In this document: positions 27,464-43,773 of the stretch, one piece after another
How positions within the stretch are numbered: the first letter of the stretch is position 1
How the letters are laid out: each line of letters starts with the position of its first letter
Assembly: GCA_029880855.1 (NCBI GenBank)
Contig: JAOUNS010000005.1
Span: forward strand, 145,130 to 209,129
Source: Gammaproteobacteria bacterium
GTDB taxonomy: Bacteria > Pseudomonadota > Gammaproteobacteria > UBA6429 > Thiohalophilaceae
Direction of reading: 5' to 3'
DNA: 64,000 bases
The notes under the pieces: generated by a model
What the model was told of the DNA's origin: nothing
Database searches by the model: none
Seen by the model: only the letters and a program-made list of their open reading frames with translations
Made by a program: the position numbers and the translations under genes

Positions 27464-28660
27464 TCAGCCTTTTACACAAACAACCTGACGCAGGGTATGC
27501 ACAACTTCAACCAGATCACTCTGATTTGCCATCACCACGTCAATGTCCTTGTAGGCACCGGGGATCTCATCGATAACACCGGCATCCTTGCGACATTCGA
27601 TACCGGCGGTCTGTTGCTCCAGATCGGCGGTGCTGTAGTGACGCTTGGCCTTGCCACGACTCATACGACGACCTGCACCATGCGAGCATGAGCAGAATGA
27701 ATCCGGGTTGCCTTTACCACGGACAATGTAGGATTTGGCCCCCATGCTGCCCGGGATAATACCCAGTTCATCCACACCGGCACGAATCGCACCCTTGCGC
27801 GTGATGTAGACGTTTTCACCGAAATGATTTTCGATGGCCACGTAGTTGTGGTGACAGTTGATCGCTTCTTTGGTCACGCCAAACTTTGGCAGTTCCTTTT
27901 TCAGCGCATCAACAATCAGACGCATCATTTCACGACGGTTATCCATCGCATAATCCTGCGCCCAGTGCACCGCAGTCACATAGTCATCAAAATGTTCCGC
28001 ACCTTCAGTAAAGTAGGCCAGATCTTTATCAGGCAGGTTGTGGATATGACGTTCCATATCCTTCTGCGCCTGACGAATAAAGTACTGACCAATCACATTA
28101 CCGATACCACGGCTGCCTGAATGCAACATGATCCAGACATCATCATTTTCATCCAGACAGATTTCGATGAAGTGGTTACCACCACCCAGCGTACCCAGCT
28201 GGCGTATCCAGGTCTGGTAGGGCTTCTTCTGCATCTTCAGAATCTTCGGATGCTTCTGCAAGACCTCATCCAGCCCCACACCCAGTGCGCGAATGGTTGA
28301 ATCACGCGCCTTGTCGGTCTTGTGCATATCAAAGCCCACCGGAATGGCGGCTTCGATGGCTGAACGCACACGCTTCAGGTTATCAGGCAAATCTTTCGCC
28401 TTGATAGACAGACGCATGGCATTCATACCACAACCGATATCCACACCAACCGCAGCCGGAATGATCGCACCTTTGCAGGGAATCACTGAACCCACCGTCG
28501 CACCCTTGCCATAGTGCACATCGGGCATGGCCGCGATATGGCTATGCACAAAGGGCAGTTGTGCAATGTTGTACAACTGCTGGTAGGCCTCATGCTCAAT
28601 GTCATCGGTGTAGATCTTGACCGGCACCTTGCCTTTGGTAATTAACTTTTTAACAGGCAT
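27464..28660 (-). CDS. rtcB: RNA-splicing ligase RtcB (3'-phosphate/5'-OH RNA ligase)
   Basis: 398 aa. GGNHFIEI motif, multiple His/Cys metal ligands (HSGSRGIGN, CHHNY), and HGAGR near the C-terminus. No rtcA or rtcR is adjacent. Confidence 0.9.
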   Translation of the reverse strand: MPVKKLITKGKVPVKIYTDDIEHEAYQQLYNIAQLPFVHSHIAAMPDVHYGKGATVGSVIPCKGAIIPAAVGVDIGCGMNAMRLSIKAKDLPDNLKRVRSAIEAAIPVGFDMHKTDKARDSTIRALGVGLDEVLQKHPKILKMQKKPYQTWIRQLGTLGGGNHFIEICLDENDDVWIMLHSGSRGIGNVIGQYFIRQAQKDMERHIHNLPDKDLAYFTEGAEHFDDYVTAVHWAQDYAMDNRREMMRLIVDALKKELPKFGVTKEAINCHHNYVAIENHFGENVYITRKGAIRAGVDELGIIPGSMGAKSYIVRGKGNPDSFCSCSHGAGRRMSRGKAKRHYSTADLEQQTAGIECRKDAGVIDEIPGAYKDIDVVMANQSDLVEVVHTLRQVVCVKG

Positions 28661-28733
28661 AACTGCTTTCCTTTATCTGTGATAATCATGGCGCTGCGAG
28701 CCATCATAATGACCGCTGCGCAGACAGCACTTT

Positions 28734-28922
28734 TTAAAAGCTGCGACCCGATCCACATATACATGGATCGTTGCGGCCCAGCTTTTCGTGCAGCTCTTTC
28801 TCACCATGAACGACCCTAGTTCCTCGTTTCACGTTTGTCTCAGAGGGATAACCCCTGCAACGTTTGCTGGTCTTCTCAAAAGGGGAAAACCTGTTCGTCT
28901 TGTTTATCATATCGCATGACAC
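28734..28922 (-). pseudogene. Small ORF ending in a truncated SEC-C zinc-binding motif (...[14 protein letters not shown]); likely a gene remnant or 5'-leader ORF
   Basis: The NDPCxCGSG signature of the SEC-C motif is present, but the ORF terminates before the second Cys/His pair. It lies in the 274-nt leader upstream of rtcB. Confidence 0.25.
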
Positions 28923-28934
28923 ACCTCCATTTTC

Positions 28935-29909
28935 TTACTTTTCAAGAACAAACCATTCAGGATTTTTTACTTTCCTGTACCGACGGTTAAATTTTTTGTC
29001 TTTCAGCAAAAATCCAGGCGCAGTATCAGTTTGTTTGAAACAGAAACGCTTCGGTAAATGACTATACAAGGAACGAGGAGGTTTTGCATAACGAATATGT
29101 TTTACCTGACTTCCTGTATCGGCACTGTGAAAATATATTGCACCAACACCGAGTTCGTTCCTTATAAAGTCAATAGCAGCGGATAACACAGCCTCATCCC
29201 AGATTTTCTGATATGGTTGAATAACATGGCGACAATAATGCATTATATTGTCTATACTTCCGTTAGCCCCATACCACTCCGGCATCTTTCCGGTTGCTGC
29301 TTTGTACCGAATCACATCCTGCTCCAGCTCTTTTGCCTGTCTTACCCAATCACTTTGTACCTCTTCAATTAAGGCCTCATTCATAGAAAAATCAAGATCT
29401 ATACGCGCCCAGGCCAGGGTCTCACGTTTAAATGGGCGCACACTCCAATCAAGTATCGGATGTGAATAACTGTTCAACAGTTGCTCATACTCTGGCTTTA
29501 CCAGTTTTTTATAAACGCCATCGTGTTCATTGGAAAAGTTCAACTGCAAAACAAGGTTATACCCATCACGGGAAGTTTGATCATAATCATGACGCGAACA
29601 ACCCCACCGATCTACTGTCAGGACAAAATGATGCATTTCTTCCTTCCAATAGTCGGCAATCAGATTATGGGTCAAACACCCGTTACCCGCCCATGCCAGG
29701 ACTGATTTCACCACGGGTTTATCCAATAAAACCGAGAAACCTGACTTGCGAATATCAGCAATTGTCTTACCATCACCAACAAAATGATCCAGTAACATCA
29801 ATGCATATCTGTCCTTAAAGTAGCGAAACAGTGTCCGTTCATCAGGCAGACAGGCAATAATTTCATCCAATTCATGTTTATTCATTGTCCATGTCCTGTA
29901 ATAAATCAA
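28935..29909 (-). CDS. Hypothetical protein (no recognisable domain)
   Basis: 324-aa ORF. Likely start at MNKHELD (29885). Lower GC, upstream of rtcB. Confidence 0.5.
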   Translation of the reverse strand: MIYYRTWTMNKHELDEIIACLPDERTLFRYFKDRYALMLLDHFVGDGKTIADIRKSGFSVLLDKPVVKSVLAWAGNGCLTHNLIADYWKEEMHHFVLTVDRWGCSRHDYDQTSRDGYNLVLQLNFSNEHDGVYKKLVKPEYEQLLNSYSHPILDWSVRPFKRETLAWARIDLDFSMNEALIEEVQSDWVRQAKELEQDVIRYKAATGKMPEWYGANGSIDNIMHYCRHVIQPYQKIWDEAVLSAAIDFIRNELGVGAIYFHSADTGSQVKHIRYAKPPRSLYSHLPKRFCFKQTDTAPGFLLKDKKFNRRYRKVKNPEWFVLEK

Positions 29910-29922
29910 ATTTCAATTCCTG

Positions 29923-31365
29923 TTATAAATGTCGCGACAACATCAAATTCCGTTCAGCTATCCAGCGACGTATAACAGCCATTTCACGTTCAGTTGCCAG
30001 GCGGTTACGCAAACCACGGATTTGATAAACCGTCCTGTTTGTATTACGCACCTCAATGGTCAACAACTTCATCTTTGTCGTCCTATCCTGCATTTCCAGG
30101 CTCCAGATCGACGTATTGCCTGAATAACAGTTACTCGCATAGGTTGCGACACAGTGGCCCAGTTTGCGTCCTTCGTCGATCAACTCATCACTGCTGAGTA
30201 ACTCACGGAACAACCAGGTTTTCAGGTTCTTTCCCTTTTCAGTTCCTTCCACAAACTGATAGTCATGAACCCTTGACTTAACCCACTGCAACTTACCATG
30301 ACGTGTCGCCTTGCCAAGACGGGTATGCCAGTTATCCACCTGACGTAACAGCGACTCGGGAGTACGTCCACGCATGGTAAAGTTTGGTTGCTCAGGCCCT
30401 TCTTCCTGTGCCACACCGCGCGCAATAAAAACGGTGCGTGTTTCATACTTCTGATTCCAGATGTAATCAATAATCGGATGATAATGACTGGTATCCAGCA
30501 TGGGATTCTCAATAAAGAATCGCAAGACACTCAACCAAAACTCATCATCCCGAAAATCACGCACCAATCTGGTTTCCACCACTGCATCGGCTATCCGTTT
30601 GTTTCCACCCAGTGCACATATCTGTGCCCAGCGAAACGCACTCTTCACATCATACCTATCCGGCGCCAGGGTAAAATAATGCGCCATCTTTTTCGTCATC
30701 CTGACAGGCAGATCATTTGCAGCACGGATGTTCTTCCCTTCCCCCAGATGGATATACCAGCGAGCCTCGGTCAACTTTACATCCTGCCAGGCACTGTCCA
30801 TAAAAGCCGGTACCGGATATTTGGCAAACAAATGTCTGGCCAGCGAGGCAAACTGACGACCGGCATTGTGTGTATTGGGAGTCCATTCCGAAATCGGCCG
30901 TACCCACTTGCCATACATCTGCACCATGCCGGCAACGCCCTTGATATAGTCAACATGGTTCATCAATTTGGTCTTCTCATCCAGCATGATCAACACATCG
31001 CGCAAGAGCTTTTTGTTCCCGACACGATTAAACCCGTTGCGTATCGCGCCTATGGTTTCACCCGCTGATTCATAGCCCGATAACTTACCTGAAAAAAGGT
31101 CGATAATCAGGTTACTCATTCTTCCCTTTTGCTTGCGATACTTCATCTTTCTCTTCGCATACTGCATTCTAAAATGGGAATATTCCAGGTGCAGTTCCGC
31201 CTCACTCTTGTTAAGCGTGGCGCTAAAGCCTTGATCCATGCACCAGTCCAGGTATTCATCCATAGACTTAAATCCCATGGCACGCGCATACATCATGGCT
31301 GTCGCCTGACGCTCATCCCTGCTTCCCTTGTTTTTACGTTTATGCGCCATGGTTAAATTCCTCAT
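29923..31365 (-). CDS. Hypothetical protein, PcfJ-like (C-terminal GHCV motif region)
   Basis: 480 aa. C-terminal KLGHCVATYASNC resembles the PcfJ-like family seen on conjugative and phage elements. Assignment is tentative. Confidence 0.45.
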   Translation of the reverse strand: MRNLTMAHKRKNKGSRDERQATAMMYARAMGFKSMDEYLDWCMDQGFSATLNKSEAELHLEYSHFRMQYAKRKMKYRKQKGRMSNLIIDLFSGKLSGYESAGETIGAIRNGFNRVGNKKLLRDVLIMLDEKTKLMNHVDYIKGVAGMVQMYGKWVRPISEWTPNTHNAGRQFASLARHLFAKYPVPAFMDSAWQDVKLTEARWYIHLGEGKNIRAANDLPVRMTKKMAHYFTLAPDRYDVKSAFRWAQICALGGNKRIADAVVETRLVRDFRDDEFWLSVLRFFIENPMLDTSHYHPIIDYIWNQKYETRTVFIARGVAQEEGPEQPNFTMRGRTPESLLRQVDNWHTRLGKATRHGKLQWVKSRVHDYQFVEGTEKGKNLKTWLFRELLSSDELIDEGRKLGHCVATYASNCYSGNTSIWSLEMQDRTTKMKLLTIEVRNTNRTVYQIRGLRNRLATEREMAVIRRWIAERNLMLSRHL

Positions 31366-31424
31366 TCATTAAATTGATCTGCCCGGCTTGTTGCCTGCCG
31401 GGCAGACCTCCTTTTACATCCCTG

Positions 31425-32576
31425 TTAACCTGACTGCAGGTTGATACGAACGGTATCTTTCATGATCCCGTCCAGACCACCGAATACAGTCAGCCTGTCC
31501 ACTTTCTCGGTTACCTTTTCCAGAACTTCCAGTTCCTTCAAACGCATTAGAGTCGGGTTGTCTTCCATCAGTCGTGCAGTGTTCAGCAGTGAACGAGTCG
31601 CTGCTGTTTCTTCACGACGCTTGATGACATTGGCCTGCGCCACTTTTTCAGCCTCAACCACCTGGTTAAGGATCTCCTTCATGTCACCCGGCAGAATGAC
31701 ATCCTTGACACCGACGCTGCGCACTTCAATACCGAACTCGCTGATCTTTTCCTTCACTGAGTCAAAGATCACACGATCCAGTGCATCCTTTTCACCCAAC
31801 AGGGTATCCAGAGTGCGGGTACCTACTGCCTGACGCAGGGCAAACTGCATTTCACGATAGACATAGTCATTCATGTTTGACAGCTTGCTACGCGCAGCCA
31901 CCGGATCAGCGATCTGGTACTGTGCGGTCAGGTTAACGCGCAGGCTAACCTTGTCCTTGCTCAGGATCTCCTGTCCCTGAACTTCCATGGCCTGCAAACG
32001 CAGTTCAATCTGTTCAACCTTGATGTTACGGTTGAACTTCCAGAAGGCGTACAGCCCCGGCTTCAGTACATCAAGCAACTTGCCGTCAACAATCAGCAGA
32101 CCGGCATGATTGTCAGCCACTTCACCGGCAGTGACATAGTTAATCACTTCACGCGGCATGCTGTTCATACGCGCATGAGCGATCAAACGTGCCTTGTCCT
32201 TTGCCAGTGCGAAGTCATGTTCAATGTTCACGACTTCAACTTTTACATCCACCAGTCCCTTCCAGTACAACTGGCGAGTTCCCGGCGCCAGAATATCGGC
32301 CAGCTTGCCATTCTTGTAGACCAGACCGACTTCATATTCACCCAGCTCAACGAACTGGAAATACTGATCGACCAGATCTCGGTGCTCTTTCACCAATACA
32401 TCAAGGTATGGATGATTGAACTCTGCAACAGTCAGGTTATGAACCTCAACCGCAATACGACCGGTCAGATCAAATATACGGTAGATGCCCGGTTCAAGAA
32501 CCTTGACCACATTACGATCTTGCATATACACACCACGTTCATGTTGTGCGATAACGATACGCTTTAGTCCGAACAT
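31425..32576 (-). CDS. SPFH/band-7 domain protein (slipin-like)
   Basis: Likely start MFGLKRIV (32576) with an AAGGAG SD 8 nt upstream. Two SPFH-like repeats and a C-terminal coiled-coil (EAEKVAQANVIKRREETAATR). Confidence 0.65.
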   Translation of the reverse strand: MFGLKRIVIAQHERGVYMQDRNVVKVLEPGIYRIFDLTGRIAVEVHNLTVAEFNHPYLDVLVKEHRDLVDQYFQFVELGEYEVGLVYKNGKLADILAPGTRQLYWKGLVDVKVEVVNIEHDFALAKDKARLIAHARMNSMPREVINYVTAGEVADNHAGLLIVDGKLLDVLKPGLYAFWKFNRNIKVEQIELRLQAMEVQGQEILSKDKVSLRVNLTAQYQIADPVAARSKLSNMNDYVYREMQFALRQAVGTRTLDTLLGEKDALDRVIFDSVKEKISEFGIEVRSVGVKDVILPGDMKEILNQVVEAEKVAQANVIKRREETAATRSLLNTARLMEDNPTLMRLKELEVLEKVTEKVDRLTVFGGLDGIMKDTVRINLQSG

Positions 32577-32844
32577 CAAATTACTCCTTCTTAAGTTAAA
32601 GTTTGGGAAACGCCCCACACATCCGTGACGGAACACAAACCTGTTCACCTGCGGGTCGCTTTTATTCCCCGGTTTGGTACCCACAAGTCGTGTCACATCA
32701 AACCCCACACGGTATTTGCAGGTACCTGGCCGCTCGTTAAACGAGACTGGCAGGCTTACATCGTTATGTTCAGGTCACAGTCATGCTGTGATTCAATAGC
32801 GCATCATTCACCGAAGTGAAAGACTTGCTCTTAAACCACGGGAG

Positions 32845-32921
32845 CGTTTCCCTGTGGTGGTGCTCACCGGCACCAACGGGCGGAGTCGAACCGCAAGCCT
32901 TTCGGCCTTTGCCATAGACAG
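32845..32921 (-). other. tRNA-like fragment or pseudo-tRNA (T-arm-like GCGG-AGTCGAA-CCGC but no foldable acceptor/anticodon arms); possible att remnant
   Basis: Has a T-loop consensus and a GC hairpin (GCCTTTCGGC), but the spacing to any CCA/acceptor does not fit a cloverleaf. Confidence 0.3.
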
Positions 32922-32997
32922 CGTGATAGGCTGGTCTGAAGAACGGGGATTGAACCCGTAACCCACTGATTATGAGTCAGTTGCTCTCCCAATTGAG
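32922..32997 (-). tRNA. tRNA-Met/Ile2 (anticodon CAU), canonical D-loop (GG) and T-loop (UUCAAUC); G1 opposite G72
   Basis: Cloverleaf folded by hand. Acceptor tcttcag, T stem ACGGG/CCCGT, anticodon stem ACTGA/TCAGT, loop CTCATAA. Confidence 0.7.
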
Positions 32998-33164
32998 CTA
33001 TCTTCACTGGTGCAATTGATCACTCATCGCTTTGTATACACATTGCTATCCCGTCAGGTGAGCGTCTGTGCACAGGTCAGGCATACAGAACCTGAACCGC
33101 TAAGCTAAATCAATGTATCAAGAGCTTCTGAACGATGTGTTAATTCAACACAAAGTTACAATTC

Positions 33165-33191
33165 TTTATGTTTAACGTGTGGCCAGCTTAA
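33165..33191. repeat. Perfect 11-bp-stem palindrome GTGTGGCCAGC-ttaa-GCTGGCCACAC
   Basis: Read directly from the sequence. Lies downstream of the HNH gene between two tRNAs. Confidence 0.5.
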
Positions 33192-33220
33192 GCTGGCCAC
33201 ACGAGATACAAAGGATCACC

Positions 33221-33291
33221 TCCTGTTACTGTAGGGTGGGCATCGCCCACCAATCCAACCTCAACCAAGTTTTTTTTTCGGTGGGCAATGC
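33221..33291. repeat. Compound inverted repeat GTAGGGTGGGCAT...ATGCCCACCCTAC enclosing two GGTGGGC/GCCCACC hairpins and a T9 run
   Basis: The outer 13-nt arms are exact reverse complements, and the inner hairpins are GGTGGGCATCGCCCACC and GGTGGGCAATGCCCACC. Confidence 0.5.
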
Positions 33292-33310
33292 CCACCCTAC
33301 ATTCATGTTG

Positions 33311-33874
33311 TTAAAACATATCACGACGTTCTTTAGTGCACTGCGCCTTCAGAAACTCCATCTGGTCTGCCTGGATATGGCGATTTCGTAAAATCAGCCA
33401 TTCCGCATGGTTCGGTGTATAGGGAACCGCATGCAAACGCATATTGATTTCCTTTAACAACCGATCTGCCTTGCGTTGATTACATGCCTTACAGGCCGTA
33501 ATTACATTGGTCCAGACATCCTTGCCACCGCGTGACATGGGAACAATATGATCCCGAGTCAGGTGTTGGTTTCCCAGTGTGGTCAAGCAATACATACAGG
33601 TATGACCATCACGACGAAACAACTCACGATTTGTCAGTGGTGGTGTCACCGCATACTTTGAGTAACCTTGTATCCCCTTGGCGGCAATAATTGGATGCAC
33701 ATCCATATAGGAACGGGTATTACTCAGACGGTTCGTCCCACCATAAAATCGCATGGTCTGTTCACCAAGTGTCCATGCCACCTGATCACGGGCATACAGC
33801 AATACGGCTTCCTGCCAGTCGATCCAGCCTGTGGCCTGTCCACTTTGACTCAAACGCAAAATCATGTGAGTCAT
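33311..33874 (-). CDS. HNH endonuclease (homing-endonuclease-like) embedded in the tRNA array
   Basis: 187 aa. HNH motif CMYC...HLTRDHIVPMSRGG...NVITACKACNQRKADR. AAGGAG SD 8 nt upstream. Confidence 0.8.
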   Translation of the reverse strand: MTHMILRLSQSGQATGWIDWQEAVLLYARDQVAWTLGEQTMRFYGGTNRLSNTRSYMDVHPIIAAKGIQGYSKYAVTPPLTNRELFRRDGHTCMYCLTTLGNQHLTRDHIVPMSRGGKDVWTNVITACKACNQRKADRLLKEINMRLHAVPYTPNHAEWLILRNRHIQADQMEFLKAQCTKERRDMF

Positions 33875-33938
33875 TTCGTCTACTCCTTTGTTGTATCGTT
33901 AATAGTTAGCCCATTAACAATTGGGAAGTGTTTAAAAA

Positions 33939-34028
33939 TGGCGGAGAGAGTGAGATTCGAACTCACGGCAGGTTTTAACCTACTCCTCGTTAGCAATGAG
34001 GTGCCTTAAGCCACTCGGCCATCTCTCC
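33939..34028 (-). tRNA. tRNA-Ser (anticodon GCU), type II long variable arm
   Basis: CCA encoded. T stem GTGAG/CTCAC with loop UUCGAAU. Long variable arm. Anticodon loop TTGCTAA. Confidence 0.7.
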
Positions 34029-34032
34029 ATAA

Positions 34033-34196
34033 AAGGTGCGTTCGGTCAGGGTATTACGCACATCCATGTGCTCCACCCTTCGGGCCAGCCTCCGGCTGTT
34101 CAAAATTGCTCCCGGCAATTTTGTCGAACTGACACTCCATAAAGGACCCAAATTTTAAGTTTGGTGCGTTTGCCAATTACGCCACGAACGCATGAA
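34033..34196. ncRNA. Structured repeat element, copy A (hairpins GCACA-tcca-TGTGC, CCC-ttcg-GGG, CAGCC-tcc-GGCTG, CAAAATTGC-tcccg-GCAATTTTG; ends complementary)
   Basis: An approximately 90-nt core is shared with copies B and C, with compensatory base changes in two stems. No ORF. Confidence 0.5.
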
Positions 34197-34198
34197 TT

Positions 34199-34271
34199 TG
34201 GCAGGGGATCCTGGATTTGAACCAGAAATGCAAGTGTCAAAGACTTGTGTGTTACCGTTACACTAATCCCC
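34199..34271 (-). tRNA. tRNA-Gln (anticodon UUG)
   Basis: CCA encoded. Acceptor aggggat/atcccct. T stem with G-U. Anticodon stem CAAGT/ACTTG with loop CUUUGAC. Confidence 0.7.
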
Positions 34272-34281
34272 TTTTATAAAT

Positions 34282-34358
34282 TGGTGCGCTCCCGGGGAGT
34301 CGAACCCCGAAAAACCTGGGTCTAAGCCAGGTACGTATGCCAGTTCCGTCAGAAGCGC
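34282..34358 (-). tRNA. tRNA with Leu anticodon UAG but type-I (5-nt variable loop) architecture, discriminator A73
   Basis: T stem CGGGG/CCCCG with loop UUCGACU. Anticodon stem CCTGG/CCAGG with loop CUUAGAC. Variable loop UUUUU. Confidence 0.55.
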
Positions 34359-34365
34359 ATTAAAT

Positions 34366-34441
34366 TGGTCGTGCCCCCTGGACTTGCACCAGGCACTCCG
34401 AGCTTATGAGGCTCGTGCTTTTCTTGCTAAGCTAGAGCACG
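34366..34441 (-). tRNA. tRNA-Met/Ile2 (CAU), non-canonical class: T-loop UGCAAGU, D-loop AGCAAGAA lacking G18G19
   Basis: D stem GCTT/AAGC, anticodon stem CGAGC/GCTCG with loop CTCATAA, T stem CCTGG/CCAGG, all folded by hand. Confidence 0.6.
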
Positions 34442-34495
34442 TTGGGTCGCTACGCACAACTCTGTGTTCTCGCGACATAAGTACATCCATAAAAA

Positions 34496-34571
34496 TGGAC
34501 ACGCGGGTCAGTGTTGCACCGACATAGTCCTGGTTTGCAATCAGGTACATTTCTAACTCTGCCACCGCGTG
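34496..34571 (-). tRNA. tRNA-Cys (GCA), non-canonical class: T-loop UGCAACA
   Basis: Acceptor cacgcgg/ccgcgtg perfect. Anticodon loop TTGCAAA. The D-arm is poorly canonical. Confidence 0.5.
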
Positions 34572-34592
34572 ATGATTTGGCACCCCGGGCAG

Positions 34593-34624
34593 GAATCGAC
34601 AATTTTGTCTGGAACAAAATTGGT
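34593..34624. repeat. Short hairpin repeat copy 1: GAATCGACAATTTTGtctggaaCAAAATTGG
   Basis: 8-bp stem CAATTTTG/CAAAATTG. A near-identical copy lies at 36843-36874. The stem equals the element A-C hairpin in the opposite orientation. Confidence 0.5.
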
Positions 34625-34740
34625 CATCGCGATAGCGATGCCTGTAAGGCACAGGTCATGGATGACCTGTGACAGCCCACACCAATTGTTTTGGAGGCAA
34701 TTGTTCTGCCATTAAACTACCGAGGCATTAACGAGATTAA
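34624..34740. other. Structured non-tRNA spacer (hairpins CATCGC-gata-GCGATG, CCTGT-aaggc-ACAGG, GGTCATGGATGACC)
   Basis: No T-loop and no ORF. Shares the CATGGATG-core hairpin with 34954-34971 and 36899-36918. Confidence 0.35.
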
Positions 34741-34745
34741 ATATT

Positions 34746-34821
34746 TGGTACACCCGGTAAGATTTGAACTTACATCATTCCGGTTAAAAGCCGGAAGCTT
34801 TACCAATTAAGCGACAGGTGC
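34746..34821 (-). tRNA. tRNA-Lys (UUU), canonical
   Basis: T stem GTAAG/CTTAC with loop UUCAAAU. Anticodon stem TCCGG/CCGGA with loop CUUUUAA. D-loop AATTGGTA. Confidence 0.75.
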
Positions 34822-34830
34822 ATTAAAAAT

Positions 34831-34906
34831 TGGACTCCCTGACCTGATTCGAACAGGTATCTCAAGCTTCGTAAACTAGTATTCTGATCCATTGAACTAC
34901 AGGGAG
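34831..34906 (-). tRNA. tRNA-like gene with perfect acceptor and T-arm (ACCTG-ATTCGAA-CAGGT) but unfoldable anticodon arm; possible pseudo-tRNA
   Basis: Acceptor ctccctg/cagggag pairs perfectly. No 5-bp anticodon stem can be drawn around ...ACTAGTTTACGAAGCTT... Confidence 0.35.
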
Positions 34907-34914
34907 TTGGTTGG

Positions 34915-35070
34915 TCGCGAAGGGTGAACGGCGGGATAGGAGCCGTGAACGCCAGGTCATGGATGACCTGGCTGGACTTTGTAATAACTACATGGATGTA
35001 GTTATTACAAAGTGAACCTTCACCTTCCTGGGTAAAAGCCAGGTGTGCTATCTATTACACCAGCGACCGA
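34915..35070. other. Structured spacer containing a perfect 17-bp hairpin (CTTTGTAATAACTACAT-gg-ATGTAGTTATTACAAAG), a CATGGATG hairpin and complementary ends
   Basis: Read from the sequence. The ends GGTCGCG...CAGCGACC pair like an acceptor stem, but there is no T-arm. Confidence 0.4.
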
Positions 35071-35080
35071 AAAATTAAAT

Positions 35081-35156
35081 TGGCACGCCTGGCAGGAGTC
35101 GAACCCACAACCGTTCGGGTAGAAACCGAATGCTCTTCCGATTAAGCTACAGACGT
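35081..35156 (-). tRNA. tRNA-Arg (UCU)
   Basis: T-loop UUCGACU. Anticodon stem TTCGG/CCGAA with loop TTTCTAC. D-loop AATCGGAA. Confidence 0.65.
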
Positions 35157-35171
35157 GTAGTGTCGTGCTGT

Positions 35172-35247
35172 TGGCGCACCTGTGAGGACTTCAACCTCAA
35201 CCTTCCATCTTCGGACGATGGTGCTCTTGCAATTAAGCTACAGGCAC
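35172..35247 (-). tRNA. tRNA-Arg (CCG), non-canonical: T-loop UUGAAGU (G56) with D-loop AAUUGCAA (C19)
   Basis: T stem TGAGG/CCTCA. Anticodon stem CCATC/GATGG with loop GUCCGAA. Confidence 0.6.
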
Positions 35248-35255
35248 ATTTAATT

Positions 35256-35354
35256 TGGCGGAGAGACAGAGATTCGAACTCTGACACCTGCTCCCGCAGG
35301 CCCTCTGTTTTCAAGACAGTCGCCGCTACCCAGACTCTTTCGGCTTACCTCTCC
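35256..35354 (-). tRNA. tRNA-Ser (UGA), type II; D-arm region unusually long
   Basis: T stem CAGAG/CTCTG with loop UUCGAAU. Variable-arm hairpin CCTGC-tccc-GCAGG. Anticodon loop CUUGAAA. Confidence 0.55.
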
Positions 35355-35360
35355 ATAATT

Positions 35361-35435
35361 TGGTCATCGCCATCGGAATTGCACCGATACCTTCTGTATG
35401 TAACACAGATGTTCTGCTGTTAAACTAGGCGACAT
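35361..35435 (-). tRNA. tRNA-Val (UAC), non-canonical class: T-loop UGCAAUU, D-loop AACAGCA
   Basis: T stem ATCGG/CCGAT. Anticodon stem TCTGT/ACAGA with loop GUUACAU. Confidence 0.6.
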
Positions 35436-35442
35436 TTATTTC

Positions 35443-35619
35443 TTAAGCATAGGGCCGAATCAAATCCAGCAATTCATCCAGTTTTGGGTTATTCCTGTTT
35501 TCGATCCAGGCATTGGCCAATATCCAGCGAAAATTTGCCGGTAAAGGCGTTATCCGGTTGTCAGGAATACGTAGCTGACGACACAAGCGTTGAAATTTGT
35601 TTAACTCGATATTATTCAT
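35443..35619 (-). CDS. Small ORF (58 aa, MNNIELNKFQRLCRQLRIPDNRITPLPANFRWILANAWIENRNNPKLDELLDLIRPYA) inside the tRNA array
   Basis: Perfect AGGAGG SD 6 nt upstream of the ATG. It fills the spacer between tRNA-Val and tRNA-His, and is below the 60-aa cutoff of the ORF track. Confidence 0.45.
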   Translation of the reverse strand: MNNIELNKFQRLCRQLRIPDNRITPLPANFRWILANAWIENRNNPKLDELLDLIRPYA

Positions 35620-35651
35620 AAACTACCTCCTGTAAATTAGGCCAAAAAGAT

Positions 35652-35728
35652 TGGGTTGGCTGAACGGACTCGAACCGATATCGTCATGATTCACATTCAT
35701 GGGCTTTACCAATTAAGCTACAACCAAC
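35652..35728 (-). tRNA. tRNA-His (GUG) with encoded G-1 and discriminator C73
   Basis: Anticodon stem CATGA/TCATG with loop AUGUGAA. D-loop AATTGGTA. T-loop UUCGAGU. The extra 5' G pairs with C73, the His identity element. Confidence 0.75.
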
Positions 35729-35737
35729 ATTGAAAAT

Positions 35738-35815
35738 TGGTCCGTACAAAAGGATTCGAACCCTTGACCTCCTGGCCCCAAACCAGGCGCTCTTCGCAGA
35801 CTGAGCTATGCACGG
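35738..35815 (-). tRNA. tRNA-Pro (UGG)
   Basis: T-loop UUCGAAU. Anticodon stem CCTGG/CCAGG with loop UUUGGGG. 10-nt D-loop without GG. Confidence 0.65.
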
Positions 35816-35821
35816 ATAATT

Positions 35822-35897
35822 TGGTACCTCGATCTGGACTCGAACCAGAAACGCCCGATTATCGGTCGAGTGTTTTACCAATTAAACTATCAAGGCT
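35822..35897 (-). tRNA. tRNA-Ile (GAU), C33 in anticodon loop
   Basis: T stem TCTGG/CCAGA with loop UUCGAGU. Anticodon loop CCGAUAA. D-loop AATTGGTA. Confidence 0.6.
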
Positions 35898-35900
35898 TGG

Positions 35901-36047
35901 GGAACCGGACGGGATTACTTCGTACATCCCTGTACTTCGCCCTGCGAACCAGCCTTCGGCTGTTCAAAATCGCTCCTGGCGATTTTGTCAAACCCGCACA
36001 GACCAGATTGAAGGTCTGGTTGCTTTGACCAATTTGCATACCGGTTC
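35901..36047. ncRNA. Structured repeat element, copy B
   Basis: Same core as copy A, with compensatory changes (GTACA-tccc-TGTAC; CAAAATCGC-tcctg-GCGATTTTG). Ends GGAACCGG/CCGGTTC are complementary. Confidence 0.5.
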
Positions 36048-36053
36048 AATAAA

Positions 36054-36129
36054 TGGCGGGACCGAAGAGGCTTGAACTCTCACCACCCTGATCGACAATC
36101 AGGTGCTCTACCAATTAAGCTACGACCCC
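36054..36129 (-). tRNA. tRNA-Asp (GUC), canonical
   Basis: T-loop UUCAAGC. Anticodon stem CCTGA/TCAGG with loop UUGUCGA. D-loop AATTGGTA. Confidence 0.7.
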
Positions 36130-36178
36130 ATGGTGAATTGGCGAATAGGTTTGTTAAATCACACTCAAAGAATGTTAT

Positions 36179-36322
36179 TTAACAACCCCACTCTCTTTTC
36201 AGTTTCTGTTTATCAGTCCGACGTTTGGACCGTTCAGATTTTTCATGCACACCACCTTTTCGCATCAGTGGATGGTCATGCAAAGGGTTGCGTGGTTTTG
36301 ACACGCGATCTTTTGCTTTCAT
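36179..36322 (-). CDS. Small basic ORF (about 47 aa, MKAKDRVSKPRNPLHDHPLMRKGGVHEKSERSKRRTDKQKLKREWGC)
   Basis: GGAG lies 7-8 nt upstream of the ATG. It sits in a 230-nt tRNA-free spacer and could equally be non-coding. Confidence 0.25.
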   Translation of the reverse strand: MKAKDRVSKPRNPLHDHPLMRKGGVHEKSERSKRRTDKQKLKREWGC

Positions 36323-36360
36323 CTTACTTCTCCGTGGTTAATTAAAGTTGCAAAAAATTG

Positions 36361-36655
36361 GTGGACGGGACGGGGCTATTTCGCACATCCATGTGCTACA
36401 CCCTTCGGGCCAGCCTTCGGCTGTTCAAAATTGCTCCCGGCGATTTTGTCGAACCCGCATCAAATGAGTACCCGGGCATTACTCCAGGCATGGAACATCT
36501 TGGGAAACGCGCACCAGTTGAGACCCGTTACCATAAGCCGCGAACCTGCATCCGTAAACCCGTGGATATTCTCAGTTAACCCATTCAGGATATTACTCCC
36601 CACCATAAGCTAACCGTTTTTTGGTGAGCATTTCCGTTTATGCTACCTGCCCATA
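36361..36655. ncRNA. Structured repeat element, copy C (long form, about 295 nt)
   Basis: The 5' 100 nt are nearly identical to the copy A core. The 3' 190 nt are unique. Confidence 0.5.
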
Positions 36656-36659
36656 AAAT

Positions 36660-36735
36660 TGGTGGAGCTGAGAAGATTTGCACTTCCAACATCCTGCTTG
36701 CAAAACAGGCACTCTACTAGTTGAGTTACAGCCCC
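36660..36735 (-). tRNA. tRNA-Ala (UGC) with G3-U70 identity pair; non-canonical class (T-loop UGCAAAU, D-loop AACUAGUA)
   Basis: Acceptor ggggctg/cagctcc gives G3 opposite U70. Anticodon loop UUUGCAA. Confidence 0.7.
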
Positions 36736-36742
36736 TTAAAAT

Positions 36743-36830
36743 TGGTGGATTGCCCAGGATTCGAACCTGGATACGTCAGAGACTCCTGATTTACAGTCAG
36801 GTGGTGCCGCCCCGTCGCACCGCGCAATCC
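36743..36830 (-). tRNA. tRNA-Tyr (GUA), type II
   Basis: Acceptor ggattgc/gcaatcc perfect. T stem CCAGG/CCTGG with loop UUCGAAU. Anticodon stem CCTGA/TCAGG with loop CUGUAAA. 11-nt D-loop. Confidence 0.7.
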
Positions 36831-36842
36831 AAATAAACTATG

Positions 36843-36874
36843 CGAATCGACAATTTTGCCTGGAGCAAAATTGG
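36843..36874. repeat. Short hairpin repeat copy 2: GAATCGACAATTTTGcctggagCAAAATTGG
   Basis: Near-identical to 34593-34624. Confidence 0.5.
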
Positions 36875-37340
36875 ACGCACGCAATGCGCCCGAAGGGCAA
36901 AGGCCATGGATGGCCTTTGTCAACTTACAAGCCAGAGGCGACGAGGTTACAACTCGTGGGGCTCACCATCTGCCCAACACATCCATGAAAATCAAAGGCT
37001 GAGACTACACCTTTAGCGCAACACCTTTTGTCGGATTACCACCCTCCGTGCGAGGAGAGTGTTGCCGCGTATCCACTTAAACCAACCCGAAGGTTGCGCT
37101 TAAGTAATATTGCATGGCTGCTTTTTTTAACGTGTAGCGATTCACGTGTACCGTAGCGTCTACTCGATATACGTCTTACCGTGTACCTTGCGGGCACTAA
37201 AGAGGAGCAACCTCACCGTGCAGTTGTATATCAATATCCTTTGGCTTGCGGCCGCCGGATCACCTGCCTTCTCTCGCGAGGGCAGGATTAAGCCATTTTC
37301 GACTCTACAGCAGGACGCGTCTTTGCGTTTTTACCTTACG

Positions 37341-37411
37341 GTGAAATCTCGGGAATCGAACCCGAACCAAAACAGGCTAAGTGTTTCGCTCTACCATTGA
37401 GCTACATTTCA
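37341..37411 (-). tRNA. Second type-I tRNA with Leu anticodon UAG; CCA not encoded; G7 opposite G66
   Basis: Canonical D-arm TAGCTCAATGGTAGAGC. Anticodon stem AAACA/TGTTT with loop CUUAGCC. T stem TCGGG/CCCGA with loop UUCGAUU. Confidence 0.5.
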
Positions 37412-37875
37412 AACCTATCAGGATGTGCGCGTCCTGGTGGTTTCATACTGCTTTAACAGTACAAAATGCCACACACCCAATGTCTTTCCACTGTCGTGTA
37501 CTTAACCATGTTTCGAGATATTGTCCCTGATTTTGACACCAGAGCCTTTACCTCTAACATTGCACAGCGCCCTTGTTTACGAGACTCGGACTAACCGCAC
37601 TACTGCTTGCTTCTCGTTGTTCACAACGTTGCCCCCGGTGTTGGCTGGCGACCAACGTCCCATTGCCCCCTTTTCAGGTACGCAATGGTCATACCGGCGT
37701 GCTTACCAACTATCTCCAGCCGACGCTGAAGACTTTGGAAGCGCAGCTTGTCTGAATTGACCTGTCCGTAAAGACAGGTGAAGGGTTATAGGAGACCACT
37801 TCTTTTTCGATATTGCTATCGATTATCGTTGTCAGACCAACACACTTTTTATGTCCGTGCCGGACAATTCAAAAT

Positions 37876-37950
37876 TGGCTCCCGGGGCTGGACTTGAACC
37901 AGCATACAACTGCTTAACAGGCAGGCCACCTACCAATGGTGCACCCAGGA
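37876..37950 (-). tRNA. tRNA-Asn (GUU)
   Basis: T stem GCTGG/CCAGC with loop UUCAAGU. Anticodon loop CUGUUAA. D-loop ATTGGTA. Confidence 0.65.
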
Positions 37951-37956
37951 ATTAAA

Positions 37957-38084
37957 TTTGCTGCAACGGGATCCTTGCTTTGGACTCCTGTCCTCTCGCG
38001 ACATTCGTACATCCCTGTACATCGTTCCGACCTATCGACATCCTGTTCTTATAACAGGCGCTCTACCAACTGAGCTACCGTTAC
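37957..38084 (-). other. Degenerate or interrupted tRNA-like gene: canonical 5' half (D-arm TAGCTCAGTTGGTAGAGC; anticodon stem CCTGT/ACAGG with loop UAUAAGA, UAA-like) but an about 50-nt insert carrying the element hairpin GTACA-tccc-TGTAC where the variable/T region should be
   Basis: The acceptor halves gtaacgg / gcaacgg pair with one G-U. The T-arm is not canonical. Confidence 0.3.
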
Positions 38085-38090
38085 ATTTCG

Positions 38091-38246
38091 TCATACACAT
38101 TGTTATACGGGCCGGGTTTCCCCACCCCGGCTCCCGAAAGTTGGTTCCGCTTTACTTACCCTCGCCTTGTCAGGCAGTAACGAGTAACAAAACAACAGGT
38201 CCGGAACCCTGCCAGGTGCTGCCACACCTCCGTATAACAATGTGTA
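38091..38246. mobile_element. MITE-like or structured element bounded by perfect 18-bp inverted repeats ATACACATTGTTATACGG / CCGTATAACAATGTGTAT
   Basis: The terminal inverted repeats are read directly from the sequence. The interior carries nested hairpins GCCGGG/CCCGGC and GGTTCCG/CGGAACC. Confidence 0.4.
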
Positions 38247-38254
38247 TAGAAAAT

Positions 38255-38328
38255 TGGAGCGAGTACAGGGATTCAAACCCTGACCAGGAGGTTGGAAGCC
38301 TCGCATGCTATCGTTACACCATACTCGC
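38255..38328 (-). tRNA. tRNA-Gly (UCC), T-loop UUUGAAU, D-loop without GG
   Basis: Acceptor gcgagta/tactcgc perfect. T stem CAGGG/CCCTG. Anticodon loop CUUCCAA. Confidence 0.6.
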
Positions 38329-38914: not shown

Positions 38915-39508
38915 ATGTCGGACAAGAAGAACCCAACCGCCGTCCAAATCGGGCAACGTATCAAACAAGCCCGAAAAATGGCCGGTTTCGAAACCGCCGC
39001 ACAACTATTGGAAGAGATACCAGAGTGGGGAACCGGGAGATTAGGGAATTATGAAGCAGGGATATCCTTGCCTTCTCCGGATGATATCAAGCTTATTTCA
39101 AGAGTTACCGGCTCCTCCCCTTGCTGGATTATGTTCGGTCTTGGACCGATACGCGCATCTGGACGTGATTTACAGGCTATCCGCCATCAGAATCTGGTTT
39201 ACGTTTTTGAGGGCTGCCGTGGAGAGCGTGGCGCCATTACAAGCTTCCTGAAAGCGGTCGGTCTGTCCCGCAGCAAAATTGATGAGCATCTTGATAACCC
39301 CTTTCTGGCCATACCGGATCGGCTGGCCCGCAAGTGCGAGATATTTGCTGAACGGAAATCCGGTTGGCTGGATGAACAACATGTAGAATCTGATCCGGTC
39401 TGTGCAGCATTCCCGGATGAGATGCGCAGGGTGATGGAGATCTATTCCAACCTGAGCGGAGAGAAACGCGAACTGTTTTTAAAAATGGCGGAAGTGTTTG
39501 TTGAATAG
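38915..39508 (+). CDS. XRE-family (Cro/CI-type HTH) transcriptional regulator with an uncharacterised C-terminal domain
   Basis: N-terminal IGQRIKQARKMAGFETAAQLLEEIP... is a typical HTH_XRE. Confidence 0.65.
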   Translation: MSDKKNPTAVQIGQRIKQARKMAGFETAAQLLEEIPEWGTGRLGNYEAGISLPSPDDIKLISRVTGSSPCWIMFGLGPIRASGRDLQAIRHQNLVYVFEGCRGERGAITSFLKAVGLSRSKIDEHLDNPFLAIPDRLARKCEIFAERKSGWLDEQHVESDPVCAAFPDEMRRVMEIYSNLSGEKRELFLKMAEVFVE

Positions 39509-41286: not shown

Positions 41287-42066
41287 ATGCCCATCCCCAA
41301 ATTTCTTTTGTTACTATTAATCAGTACAACCTTATTTCTGTCTGCTACCACCGTTGTTGCTGCGGACAGGTGGACCTTCTCTACCGGCGTGGATTACAGC
41401 CAGGGTGACTATGGCGCAACAATAGATACAGAAATCTGGTACATCCCGTTTGCAGTCAAGCTGGAACAGGCCGATATGGTTTACAAGCTCACCGTACCAA
41501 TGCTGGCCATGTCGGGTCCAGGCAATGTAATCGGTGTTGATGCAGTGCCCGGCACCGGCAACCCCAATGAACGACATTCAGAAGCCGGCATGGGTGATAC
41601 GGTGGTGGCCGTGTCCAAAGCATTATTACCTTATCAGCCGGGCAAGCTGTTTCTGGAACTGACCGGCAAGATCAAGCTTCCTACGGCAGATGAGACACGG
41701 GGACTGGGCACCGGAAAAATTGACTACGCCATTCAGATCGATCCTTTTTACGGTATTCGCAAGACCAGTCTTTTTGCCACGCTGGGTTACAAGCTGCAAG
41801 GCGATCCGCCAGACATTACATATCGCAATATTTTGTATTATTCGCTGGGCATCGACTATGCGTTTACAGAGCAGATCGGCGCAGGTCTGATTTATGATTA
41901 TCGACAGGCCGGTACCGCCGGTGGAATTGCGCCGGAGGAACTGACCGTTTATCTACATCGAAAACTCGATAATTCCAGGAAACTGCTGATCTATCTGCTA
42001 CATGGCTTGAGTGACGGCAGCCCGGATATGGGACTGGGAATTAATGTGAGTTACATCCTTAAGTAA
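41287..42066 (+). CDS. Putative outer-membrane beta-barrel protein (MetA-pathway/transporter-like family)
   Basis: Signal peptide, alternating beta-strand pattern and C-terminal aromatic-rich strands. Confidence 0.5.
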   Translation: MPIPKFLLLLLISTTLFLSATTVVAADRWTFSTGVDYSQGDYGATIDTEIWYIPFAVKLEQADMVYKLTVPMLAMSGPGNVIGVDAVPGTGNPNERHSEAGMGDTVVAVSKALLPYQPGKLFLELTGKIKLPTADETRGLGTGKIDYAIQIDPFYGIRKTSLFATLGYKLQGDPPDITYRNILYYSLGIDYAFTEQIGAGLIYDYRQAGTAGGIAPEELTVYLHRKLDNSRKLLIYLLHGLSDGSPDMGLGINVSYILK

Positions 42067-42958: not shown

Positions 42959-42970
42959 GCCCTAACTCCT

Positions 42971-43765: not shown

Positions 43766-43773
43766 TGTCAAAC

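Follow-up and report, generated by a model that had tools for sequence, protein, structure and literature searches.

We analysed a 64,000-nucleotide stretch of a Gammaproteobacteria bacterium genome (contig JAOUNS010000005.1 of assembly GCA_029880855.1, positions 145,130 to 209,129; the whole stretch is called the window), which carries an L-array, a long array of transfer RNA (tRNA) genes of a type spread by horizontal transfer and marked by the conservation of an HNH gene (Santamaría-Gómez et al. 2021; PMC8421152). Four tRNAs of this array have A at position 18 of the D-loop and G at position 55 of the T-loop. The usual residues, G18 and U55, are among the most conserved nucleotides of tRNA and are the sites of 2′-O-methylguanosine 18 (Gm18) and pseudouridine 55 (Ψ55), the latter called 'universally conserved' (PMC7912444). 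We conclude that the four are, in all likelihood, intact and functional tRNAs of a presumably mobile L-array in an RNA-repair and translational-stress locus, in which an A18·G55 contact replaces G18·Ψ55. G18, G19, Ψ55 and C56 are taught as near-invariant, and A18·G55 would be a specific natural alternative to the inner part of this set.

Four tRNAs of the array carry A18 and G55

The array and the four variant genes are as follows, with position 18 and 55 coordinates given for each.

32932..38328, minus strand: same-strand tRNA gene array (L-array), 20 tRNAs by ARAGORN within 5.4 kb
34366..34441, minus strand: tRNA-CAU, elongator Met or Ile2 type (ARAGORN; Rfam 51.5 bits; minimum-free-energy (MFE) structure a cloverleaf); D-loop AGCAAGAA, T-loop UGCAAGU, A18 at 34424, G55 at 34387
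34496..34571, minus strand: tRNA-Cys(GCA) (ARAGORN; Rfam 39.3 bits); T-loop UGCAACA, A18 at 34554, G55 at 34517
35361..35434, minus strand: tRNA-Val(UAC) (ARAGORN; Rfam 47.6 bits; RNAfold); 7-nucleotide D-loop AACAGCA, T-loop UGCAAUU, A18 at 35418, G55 at 35382
36660..36735, minus strand: tRNA-Ala(UGC) (ARAGORN; Rfam 61.5 bits; MFE structure a cloverleaf); D-loop AACUAGUA, T-loop UGCAAAU, A18 at 36718, G55 at 36681

In canonical numbering, the elbow of all four genes reads A18-G19 with U54-G55-C56-A57-A58, the T-loop between G53 and C61 being UGCAA followed by GU, CA, UU or AU. G19 and C56 are retained, and the parts of the molecule that direct charging are in place: tRNA-Ala has G3·U70 and A73, tRNA-Cys has U73, tRNA-Val and tRNA-Met have A73, and CCA is encoded in all four, as it is in 19 of the 20 ARAGORN tRNAs of the array (the exception is a tRNA-Leu that ends in CC and lies within a GOLLD RNA). 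Several further tRNA-like genes of the array are overlooked by ARAGORN.

A first-pass annotation made from the letters alone had described four tRNAs with a UGCAA T-loop and, in the three whose D-loop it could read, A at the G18 site, and ARAGORN and the Rfam alignments agree with it. Its coordinates and sequences hold on the minus strand apart from the end of tRNA-Val, which is 35434 and not 35435. It had also called the D-arm of tRNA-Cys poorly canonical. This arm can be read, with G10·U25, C11-G24, A12-U23 and G13·A22 enclosing a D-loop AGUUAGAA (inside ARAGORN's GAGUUAGAAA), yet with mismatches at G13·A22 and A31·C39 it belongs to the weakest of the four cloverleaves. G55/A18 Cys tRNAs are also present in three of the loci retrieved for comparison, which carry L numbers throughout (L011, L140 and L143).

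Two more ARAGORN tRNAs of the array depart from the consensus at the outer elbow pair and are described below. The remaining 14 have the T-loop UUCRA, and 13 of these also carry GG in their D-loop; as had been noted, GG and UUCRA are both present in Lys, His, Asp, Ile and Asn, tRNA-His also encodes its G-1 (35728) opposite C73, and the G3·U70 of tRNA-Ala had been read correctly. The exception among the 14 is tRNA-Pro(UGG) (35738-35815, minus strand), whose 10-nucleotide D-loop, AGUCUGCGAA, has G-N-G replacing GG while its T-loop is the canonical UUCGAAU. The Pro tRNA of L011 (3921-3998) has the D-loop AGUCUGUGCA, and the Pro D-loop may contain a 1-nucleotide insertion between G18 and G19 that is conserved across arrays.

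Arm boundaries do not shift to restore a canonical elbow

A different placement of the arms could in principle bring back GG in the D-loop and UUC in the T-loop, an outcome that the first-pass annotation had named as refuting its reading. Infernal alignment to the Rfam tRNA family RF00005 gave the scores listed above for the four genes, against a gathering score of 29, and placed A beneath consensus G18, G beneath G19, and G55 beneath the second U of GGUUC. The stems are identical between the Infernal alignments and ARAGORN for all four G55 tRNAs, and the MFE structure from RNAfold is the cloverleaf for tRNA-Met, tRNA-Val, tRNA-Ala and tRNA-Arg(CCG). Each of the four has an acceptor stem of 7 base pairs (bp), a D-stem of 3-4 bp, an anticodon stem of 5 bp and a T-stem of 5 bp, with nearly fully paired stems; measured against the invariant elbow (G18, G19, U55, C56), they keep G19 and C56 and differ at 18 and 55. 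Since the arm boundaries are equal by the three methods, no refolding rescues GG/UUC, and the proposed alternative elbow withstands this test.

When both strands of the window were searched, no G55-type T-arms besides these four were found. We also considered pairing within the T-loop (G55-C59 together with U54-A60), which is possible in tRNA-Cys; it was rejected as a general explanation, since the remaining G55 tRNAs have other residues at positions 59 and 60.

Positions 18 and 55 change together

Within the window alone, an AG D-loop occurs in 4/4 G55 tRNAs and in 0/16 others (Fisher p = 2e-4). We extended the comparison to a set of 1,126 array tRNAs that were unselected for loop features, namely those of the window plus those of loci reached via RtcB and HNH homologues, these loci contributing 1,106 further tRNAs. 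In this set AG is found in 15 of the 16 G55 tRNAs, compared with 5 of 1,100 U55 tRNAs (Fisher p = 7e-29). Contingency counts were then taken from the 262 tRNAs with a 7-nucleotide D-loop, in which the register is unambiguous; the combinations at 18 and 55 were G·U in 250, G·C in 6, A·G in 5 and G·G in 1.

Two reciprocal and unbiased scans of the viral database IMG/VR showed the same coupling from either side. The first fixed generic tRNA features, GTGCAA..C and CCA, and left D-loop positions 16-20 free; it matched at least 120 loci, and 105 of the 122 matches listed passed a cloverleaf cut-off of at least 18/21 pairs, the stems reaching 20-21 of 21 pairs in about 90 of the matches listed. Among these listed matches, 104 of the 105 good cloverleaves have A18 in an AG D-loop. 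The converse scan fixed A18-G19 and left position 55 free, and its 92 good cloverleaves have G55 in 88 cases, U55 in 4, and A or C in none.

A pair of closely related genes shows the exchange in isolation: the tRNA-Gln(UUG) genes of L117 and L104 differ at only 2 of 74 nucleotides, and these are G18 to A and U55 to G. Moreover, when each G55 tRNA was compared by BLAST with all array tRNAs, its nearest relative was usually a canonical isoacceptor and not another G55 tRNA, which points to the double change having arisen many times independently. The first-pass annotation had argued that the changes are correlated and not random decay, and had named unconstrained homologous positions as the outcome that would count against this. 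The array statistics, the two scans and the Gln pair bear the argument out, with both positions tightly constrained as a pair in arrays and in viral contigs alike.

Two features of the procedure bear on these counts. An automatic classifier of GG and AG D-loops mislabelled sequences such as AGGUAGUA, which contain G15-G16 besides A18-G19, and 32 apparent cases of G55 with GG in the scan loci are mostly an artefact of this kind. Plain mutual information between the columns of the D-loop and those of the T-loop was discarded as a statistic; it was dominated by the variable positions 59/60, 16/17 and 20 and by register heterogeneity, and is unsuited here because the columns of interest vary rarely, hence the contingency counts in the fixed-register subset.

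The outer pair 19-56 co-varies as a Watson-Crick pair

Two array tRNAs with a regular U55 have an altered outer elbow pair.

35172..35247, minus strand: tRNA-Arg(CCG) (ARAGORN; Rfam 46.7 bits; RNAfold); D-loop AAUUGCAA, T-loop UUGAAGU, C19 at 35229, G56 at 35192
38255..38328, minus strand: tRNA-Gly(UCC) (ARAGORN; Rfam 56.5 bits), absent from the first-pass annotation; D-loop AACGAUA, T-loop UUUGAAU, A19 at 38311, U56 at 38275

The swap of G19-C56 to C19-G56 in tRNA-Arg(CCG) had been proposed from the letters and was recovered here, and tRNA-Gly(UCC) adds an A19-U56 pair. In the 7-nucleotide D-loop subset (n = 262), the combinations at 19 and 56 were G-C in 256 tRNAs, A-U in 5 and A·A in 1. Pooling the array and scan-locus tRNAs, C56 occurs with GG in 1,651 tRNAs; U56 occurs with GA in 28 of 31 and with GG, giving a G·U pair, in 3 of 31; A56 occurs with GU in 7 tRNAs and G56 with GC in 3. 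Position 19 thus co-varies with position 56 as a Watson-Crick pair.

Other elbow variants were seen in the same material. In phage arrays (L081-L160, L161-L328) about 30 tRNAs have the T-loop AUCGU, in which A54...U58 replaces the U54·A58 reverse-Hoogsteen pair, and an AGCGU T-loop combines the A54/U58 swap with G55/A18. A UCCGA T-loop, with C55 and G18 kept, was found in 10 array tRNAs and 23 scan-locus tRNAs. A few G55 tRNAs possibly have U18, their D-loops being AAAUGUAA and GAAUGUAUA.

The exchange is widespread in phage tRNAs

The A18·G55 solution is found in hundreds of phage tRNAs and is not peculiar to this array. The first-pass annotation had suggested looking for the class in phage arrays, and viral contigs of IMG/VR do contain it; its framing as a subclass of array tRNAs was too narrow. 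The G55 tRNAs cover all 20 amino-acid identities, and many of the scan matches are initiator-like tRNA-fMet. Most scan contigs have one G55 tRNA amid canonical ones. In some cases all or nearly all detected tRNAs are of the G55 type, as counted with ARAGORN on retrieved stretches of 3-15 kb of the phage genomes: L247 (18/18), L242 (15/15), L177 (14/15), L227 (12/13), L314 (13/16), L326 (10/11) and L305 (5/5). The guanine plus cytosine (G+C) content of the stretches with all or nearly all G55 tRNAs ranges from 45 to 65%. Genes for terminase gpA, a lambda-type portal and an S49 protease confirm L242 as a genuine phage, and the array-type HNH gene is found on L177, L242 and L326. A reverse-strand open reading frame (ORF) of 507 amino acids on L326 encodes a TROVE (Ro60-like) plus vWA protein. 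All of 54 chromosomal tRNAs from unrelated metagenome loci are canonical.

Outside viral contigs, the trn operon of Anabaena sp. PCC 7120, on plasmid delta, holds one G55/A18 tRNA, which ARAGORN reads as Glu-CUC.

NC_003273.1 52006-52083 (L452 3007-3084), minus strand: Anabaena G55 tRNA; D-loop AAAUAAGAUAA, T-loop UGCAACU, discriminator U

Provided that this gene is expressed, the class could be studied experimentally in this tractable operon. BLAST of the array against INPHARED phages returned matches at the level of tRNAs and no related phage, BLAST of the four G55 tRNAs returned canonical homologues with no cultured example identified, and Caulobacter phage CcrBL9 and Phage Phass-1 are without a G55 tRNA.

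A structural rationale from riboswitch T-loops

T-loops are not confined to tRNA. Those of flavin mononucleotide (FMN) and cobalamin riboswitches have the consensus UGNRA, mostly UGNAA; the nucleotide that intercalates between T-loop positions 4 and 5 is almost always adenosine and forms two hydrogen bonds with the G2 sugar edge; tRNA is described as the variant with U at T-loop position 2 (bioRxiv 10.1101/2022.12.26.521914). The loops described here have the features of that motif, namely a helix-closed U-G-N-R-A pentaloop followed by bulged nucleotides, and a partner adenine that co-varies with G2.

Accordingly worded, the model is one of substitution within a known architecture. In the four array tRNAs the inner contact G18·Ψ55 would be replaced by A18·G55, and the T-loop would shift from the tRNA type UUCRA to the UGNRA type of other structured RNAs, with A18 intercalating between 57 and 58 and bonding to the sugar edge of G55, as the riboswitch precedent predicts. 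As UGNRA with an intercalating adenine is usual in riboswitches, such a change is structurally plausible, and by analogy the three-dimensional geometry of A18·G55 is probably that of riboswitch T-loops. The likeness extends to the purine at position 4 (A57 in all four), the two bulged nucleotides and the adenine from the partner loop; the difference is that here the setting is the tRNA elbow, where the partner D-loop also supplies G19 to pair with C56, whereas riboswitch receptors are other loops.

The solvent-exposed 19-56 pair forms the flat outer face of the elbow, which RNase P, the CCA-adding enzyme and the ribosome (through the L1 stalk and L5) recognise. It is kept as a Watson-Crick pair, G-C in the four G55 tRNAs, C-G in tRNA-Arg(CCG) and A-U in tRNA-Gly(UCC), and the flat elbow face for these partners would thereby be preserved, as would be expected if their recognition has to be maintained. 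Compared with canonical tRNA (RF00005), the four share the cloverleaf, the arm lengths, the 7-nucleotide T-loop with U54...A58, G53-C61, a Watson-Crick 19-56 pair, the anticodon loop, identity elements and CCA, and they differ in having G at 55 and A at 18. Mitochondrial and other functional tRNAs with non-canonical elbows have lost the G18/G19/U55/C56 consensus; in those the D/T interaction is lost or shrunk, whereas here loop sizes and network are kept and one pair is exchanged.

The exchange should have chemical consequences. Because TruB needs U55, A18·G55 tRNAs should be unable to carry Ψ55, its product; for equally chemical reasons they should not carry Gm18, the product of TrmH, and they should lack the U54-Ψ55 dinucleotide. 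With the double mutant built many times in nature, they would allow the contributions of the 18-55 contact and of Ψ55/Gm18 to be tested naturally.

Function, drivers and alternatives

From their sequences, A18·G55 tRNAs would be expected to fold into the L shape, to be aminoacylated and to serve translation. Several observations weigh against this interpretation or its scope. The MFE structure of tRNA-Cys is not a clean cloverleaf, RNAfold giving an alternative fold that shrinks the T-loop. The Anabaena G55 tRNA may be among the three array tRNAs of 26 that went undetected. The closest arrays, L001 and L002 (RtcB 85-86% identical), contain no G55 tRNA, so that A18·G55 is not needed for array function. 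Rare intermediates also exist, with A18·U55 in 4 tRNAs, G18·G55 in 1-2 and possible U18·G55 in 3, and the 18-55 pair rule is for this reason strong but not absolute. Finally, nuclease escape, the driver considered next, is an analogy, and neither the window nor the all-G55 phage contigs yielded such a nuclease.

As to what favours the exchange, we tentatively propose that the tRNAs escape factors which recognise the canonical GTΨC loop, for instance tRNases specific for the T-loop or further nucleases of defence and competition. The one T-loop-specific tRNase that we could document, CdiA-CT E479, cleaves the bond between T and Ψ (PMC9086364). After escape, the option we rank second is that the tRNAs become independent of elbow modification by the host. 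Phage T5 tRNAs reportedly evade host anticodon nucleases via changes in the anticodon loop. The tRNAs described here are like those of T5 in being borne by phages or mobile elements and in differing from the host at conserved loop positions with function presumably kept, and unlike them in that the altered site is the elbow and not the anticodon loop. We know of no cognate nuclease for elbow-altered tRNAs.

Conversion of all detected tRNAs on unrelated phage stretches leads us to prefer directional selection over drift. It is a more doubtful proposition that A18·G55 tRNAs form an 'orthogonal elbow' class, positively selected in phages and mobile arrays and invisible to GTΨC readers in the form of T-loop tRNases from host defence or bacterial competition, a phage's own nuclease against host tRNAs, or a DNA nuclease recognising GGTTCRA in tRNA genes. 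If it were true, fully converted phages would translate with a tRNA pool of their own, proof against nucleases and in no need of modification, while the tRNAs of the host are degraded. The A18·G55 tRNAs also suggest the elbow as a new axis of phage-host conflict, besides the arms race at the anticodon loop.

A rather unlikely alternative is neutral or near-neutral isosteric drift, under relaxed selection on supernumerary and short-lived phage or array tRNAs, with no adaptive value. L-array tRNAs are redundant with the housekeeping set (PMC8421152), and arrays hold many other elbow variants (30 A54-U58 swaps, 10 cases of C55, and the 19-56 swaps); the single G55 tRNA on most contigs and the canonical state of 54/54 sampled chromosomal tRNAs also fit drift. 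Against it, the exchange requires two substitutions via a presumably unfit intermediate and yet recurs in all 20 identities, intermediates are rare, and conversion of all or nearly all detected tRNAs (18/18, 15/15, 14/15) in unrelated contigs of 45-65% G+C would be hard to obtain by drift.

Improbable, too, is a driver at the level of DNA, in which the change of U55 to G removes the highly conserved word GGTTCGA or GGTTCAA and so guards the array from a nuclease that attacks tRNA genes, A18 being compensation at the RNA level in tRNAs that work. The candidates would be the array-linked HNH homing endonuclease or restriction enzymes recognising TCGA or TTCGAA. TTCGA contains the site of TaqI and TTCGAA that of BstBI, and UGCRA abolishes both. 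An HNH gene of one family is embedded here and in nearly all related phage arrays, all-G55 ones included, and a passage in PMC8421152 cites T4 SegB, a homing endonuclease in a tRNA region, as preferring to cut within tRNA genes. However, the HNH gene is equally present in arrays without G55 tRNAs (L001, L002), and a G57A change, giving UUCAA, loses the restriction site more cheaply, calls for no compensating change and is frequent as it is (170 of 1,106 tRNAs). Restriction-site avoidance was on this ground judged weak as a driver.

We think it very unlikely that the G55 genes are tRNA-like decoys, sponges or regulatory RNAs that, for example, titrate toxin RNases or modification enzymes. The authors of the L-array study proposed a sponge role for array tRNAs (PMC8421152), and the present array also holds a GOLLD RNA and tRNA-like RNAs unable to be ordinary tRNAs. 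But the G55 genes maintain anticodon loops, identity elements, discriminator bases and CCA and together span all 20 amino acids, a decoy aimed at T-loop readers would be expected to retain the canonical T-loop, and the G55-only retrieved stretches of some phage contigs make sense only if the tRNAs decode. Decaying pseudogenes, with the D/T-loop pattern due to chance or misalignment, are hardly credible: the weak D-arm and the A·C anticodon-stem mismatch of the window's tRNA-Cys, and the pseudogenes in the Anabaena array (3 of 26 genes; PMC8421152), stand against covariation statistics, reciprocal scans and a two-site Gln difference that effectively refute this reading, and against intact stems (20-21/21 pairs in about 90 of the matches listed) and Rfam scores above the gathering score.

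Intact A18·G55 tRNAs, the reading we retain, would also be of practical interest, as a scaffold on which synthetic biology and cell-free systems could build tRNAs that are orthogonal or independent of modification. They carry a warning for annotation as well, for covariance models give such genes lower scores, and they may be mistaken for pseudogenes. The molecule (tRNA) and the T-loop type are both known; their combination seems not to have been reported before, nor do its breadth and the apparent conversion of whole sets. We found no description of natural A18·G55 tRNAs in the literature, which was covered through open-access papers, so that this absence is no proof. Published accounts of the Anabaena operon make no mention of elbow variants, a search of the L-array paper (PMC8421152) having turned up neither 'T-loop' nor 'G18'.

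The array lies in an RtcB-linked locus related to known L-arrays

The following features surround or interrupt the array.

27464..28660, minus strand: RtcB RNA ligase gene, 4.3 kb from the array (Pfam RtcB, E = 1.5e-132)
31425..32708, minus strand: SPFH/Band-7 (slipin-like) gene between RtcB and the array (Pfam Band_7), kept beside RtcB in 18 loci
33311..33874, minus strand: HNH endonuclease gene within the array (Pfam HNH_5/HNH), with homologues in L001, L002 and L011
36996..37481, minus strand: GOLLD RNA inside the array (Rfam RF02032, 154.8 bits against a gathering score of 150, E = 2.7e-42)

The order of the locus is a helix-turn-helix (HTH) gene, the array with the GOLLD RNA, the HNH gene, one tRNA, the SPFH/Band-7 gene, a PcfJ-like gene, a gene for a 324-amino-acid protein, and RtcB. 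The protein-coding cluster spans 27464-33874 and 38915-39508, with the HTH gene on the far side of the array. About 20 or more closely spaced, non-periodic same-strand tRNAs, together with the HNH (33311-33874) and RtcB (27464-28660) genes in an arrangement shared by L001, L002 and L011, make this an L-array. The tRNA-Leu(UAG) mentioned above (37340-37411) is embedded within the GOLLD RNA, which is found here in a bacterial chromosomal L-array and not in a phage.

RtcB is 85-86% identical to its homologues in two metagenome-assembled genomes of Gammaproteobacteria (contigs of 1.3 and 0.8 Mb), which have arrays at the same place. Among 80 loci with a close RtcB homologue, an array occupies this place in three (L001, L002, L011), and array content differs sharply between genomes whose RtcB is 85% identical. 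HNH homologues in phage contigs nearly always lie beside tRNA arrays (80 viral loci with many tRNAs). In many gammaproteobacterial loci with just 0-2 tRNAs, the genes for the HTH protein (HTH197), the SPFH protein and the 324-amino-acid protein (p324) are conserved beside RtcB. The lone tRNA at 32932-33007 (minus strand) adjoins the SPFH gene, and the HNH gene lies between it and the main array; CCA is not encoded in its counterparts (L001 7702-7774, L002 6665-6737, L011 6785-6858), and a single tRNA persists at this site in many RtcB loci that have no array.

L-arrays share their regulation with rtcB; normally silent, they respond to translational stress by induction, and in the Anabaena array 23 of 26 tRNAs are charged in vivo and polysome-associated, 3 of the 26 genes being pseudogenes (PMC8421152). 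In Anabaena, the trn operon belongs to the regulon of the repressor TrcR, together with the HNH gene, rtcB and a slipin gene (PMC10272220). The locus described here resembles the trn operon of Anabaena PCC 7120 in its 20 or more tRNA genes on one strand, in the HNH gene beside them, in being linked to rtcB and a slipin/SPFH gene, and perhaps in a patchy occurrence suggestive of horizontal transfer, as well as in the G55/A18 tRNA that the Anabaena array itself holds. It differs in that the regulon is dispersed in Anabaena, whereas rtcB, SPFH, HNH and array are physically clustered in this gammaproteobacterium, and in having a GOLLD RNA and insertion-bearing tRNA-like genes inside the array.

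A few kilobases from the array, at 42059-44337 (minus strand), two tandem genes of RlaP, an RNA-repair-pathway polymerase-beta family, are followed by a gene resembling NADAR/riboflavin-intermediate N-glycosidases; this is further content of the RNA-repair or defence type. Two small ORFs lie in the array (35443-35619 and about 36140-36330, minus strand), encoding 58 amino acids and a very basic product of about 47-60 amino acids (MKAKDRVSKPRNPLHDHPLMRKGG...).

Array spacers contain tRNA-like genes with a hairpin-rich insertion

Several apparent spacers of the array are tRNA-like genes, such as those for Leu-UAA and Glu-UUC (34029-34198, 35897-36053 and about 36346-36470, minus strand), in which an insertion of about 75 nucleotides forming four hairpins directly follows A58 of the T-loop. 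Its layout is GA-CAAAAUCGCC-GGGA-GCGAUUUUG-AAC-(variable hairpin)-GGCCCGAAGGGCG-GAGGGCAGGAUGCCCGGAGUA-AU, with compensatory changes in the variable hairpin, and the flanks GAAC...GAGUAA could form a loop-E/sarcin-ricin motif. The hairpin pattern matched at least 120 loci in metagenomes (L331-L450). Among the metagenome matches listed, the insertion stands after GGTTC in 30 of 123, and other sites among them include class-II D-loops (GAGTGGTC|GA), a position just downstream of a match to group II intron D1-D4, and further recurring contexts. The element belongs to no Rfam family and had no match in viral contigs. When the insertion of about 75 nucleotides was excised in silico, the window's Leu-UAA and Glu-UUC genes became tRNAs that ARAGORN recognises, but few of the metagenome copies did. 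The RtcB ligase gene lies 5 kb from the insertion-bearing genes, and the insertion may represent an intron, some other intervening sequence or an RNA module that is mobile.

A tRNA-Trp(CCA)-like gene and its neighbours (34572-34745, 34907-35080 and 36844-36874, minus strand) apparently carry the same insertion in the opposite orientation, with hairpin loops AUCCAU replacing AUGGAU and an AAAAUUG hairpin just 5' of UCGAUU. Read on the plus strand, the reversed insertion has adjacent hairpins with AYGGAY loops, which we take to be reminiscent of the TwoAYGGAY motif, of which Rfam reported none. Since both orientations are found, insertion at the DNA level is suggested, at the palindromic TCGA of the T-loop DNA.

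One further gene, a tRNA-Ser(UGA)-like gene of 95 nucleotides (35260-35354, minus strand), has an oversized D-arm region and a GCCA end and is missed by ARAGORN; against the tRNA-Sec model it scored 28.3 bits, below the gathering score.

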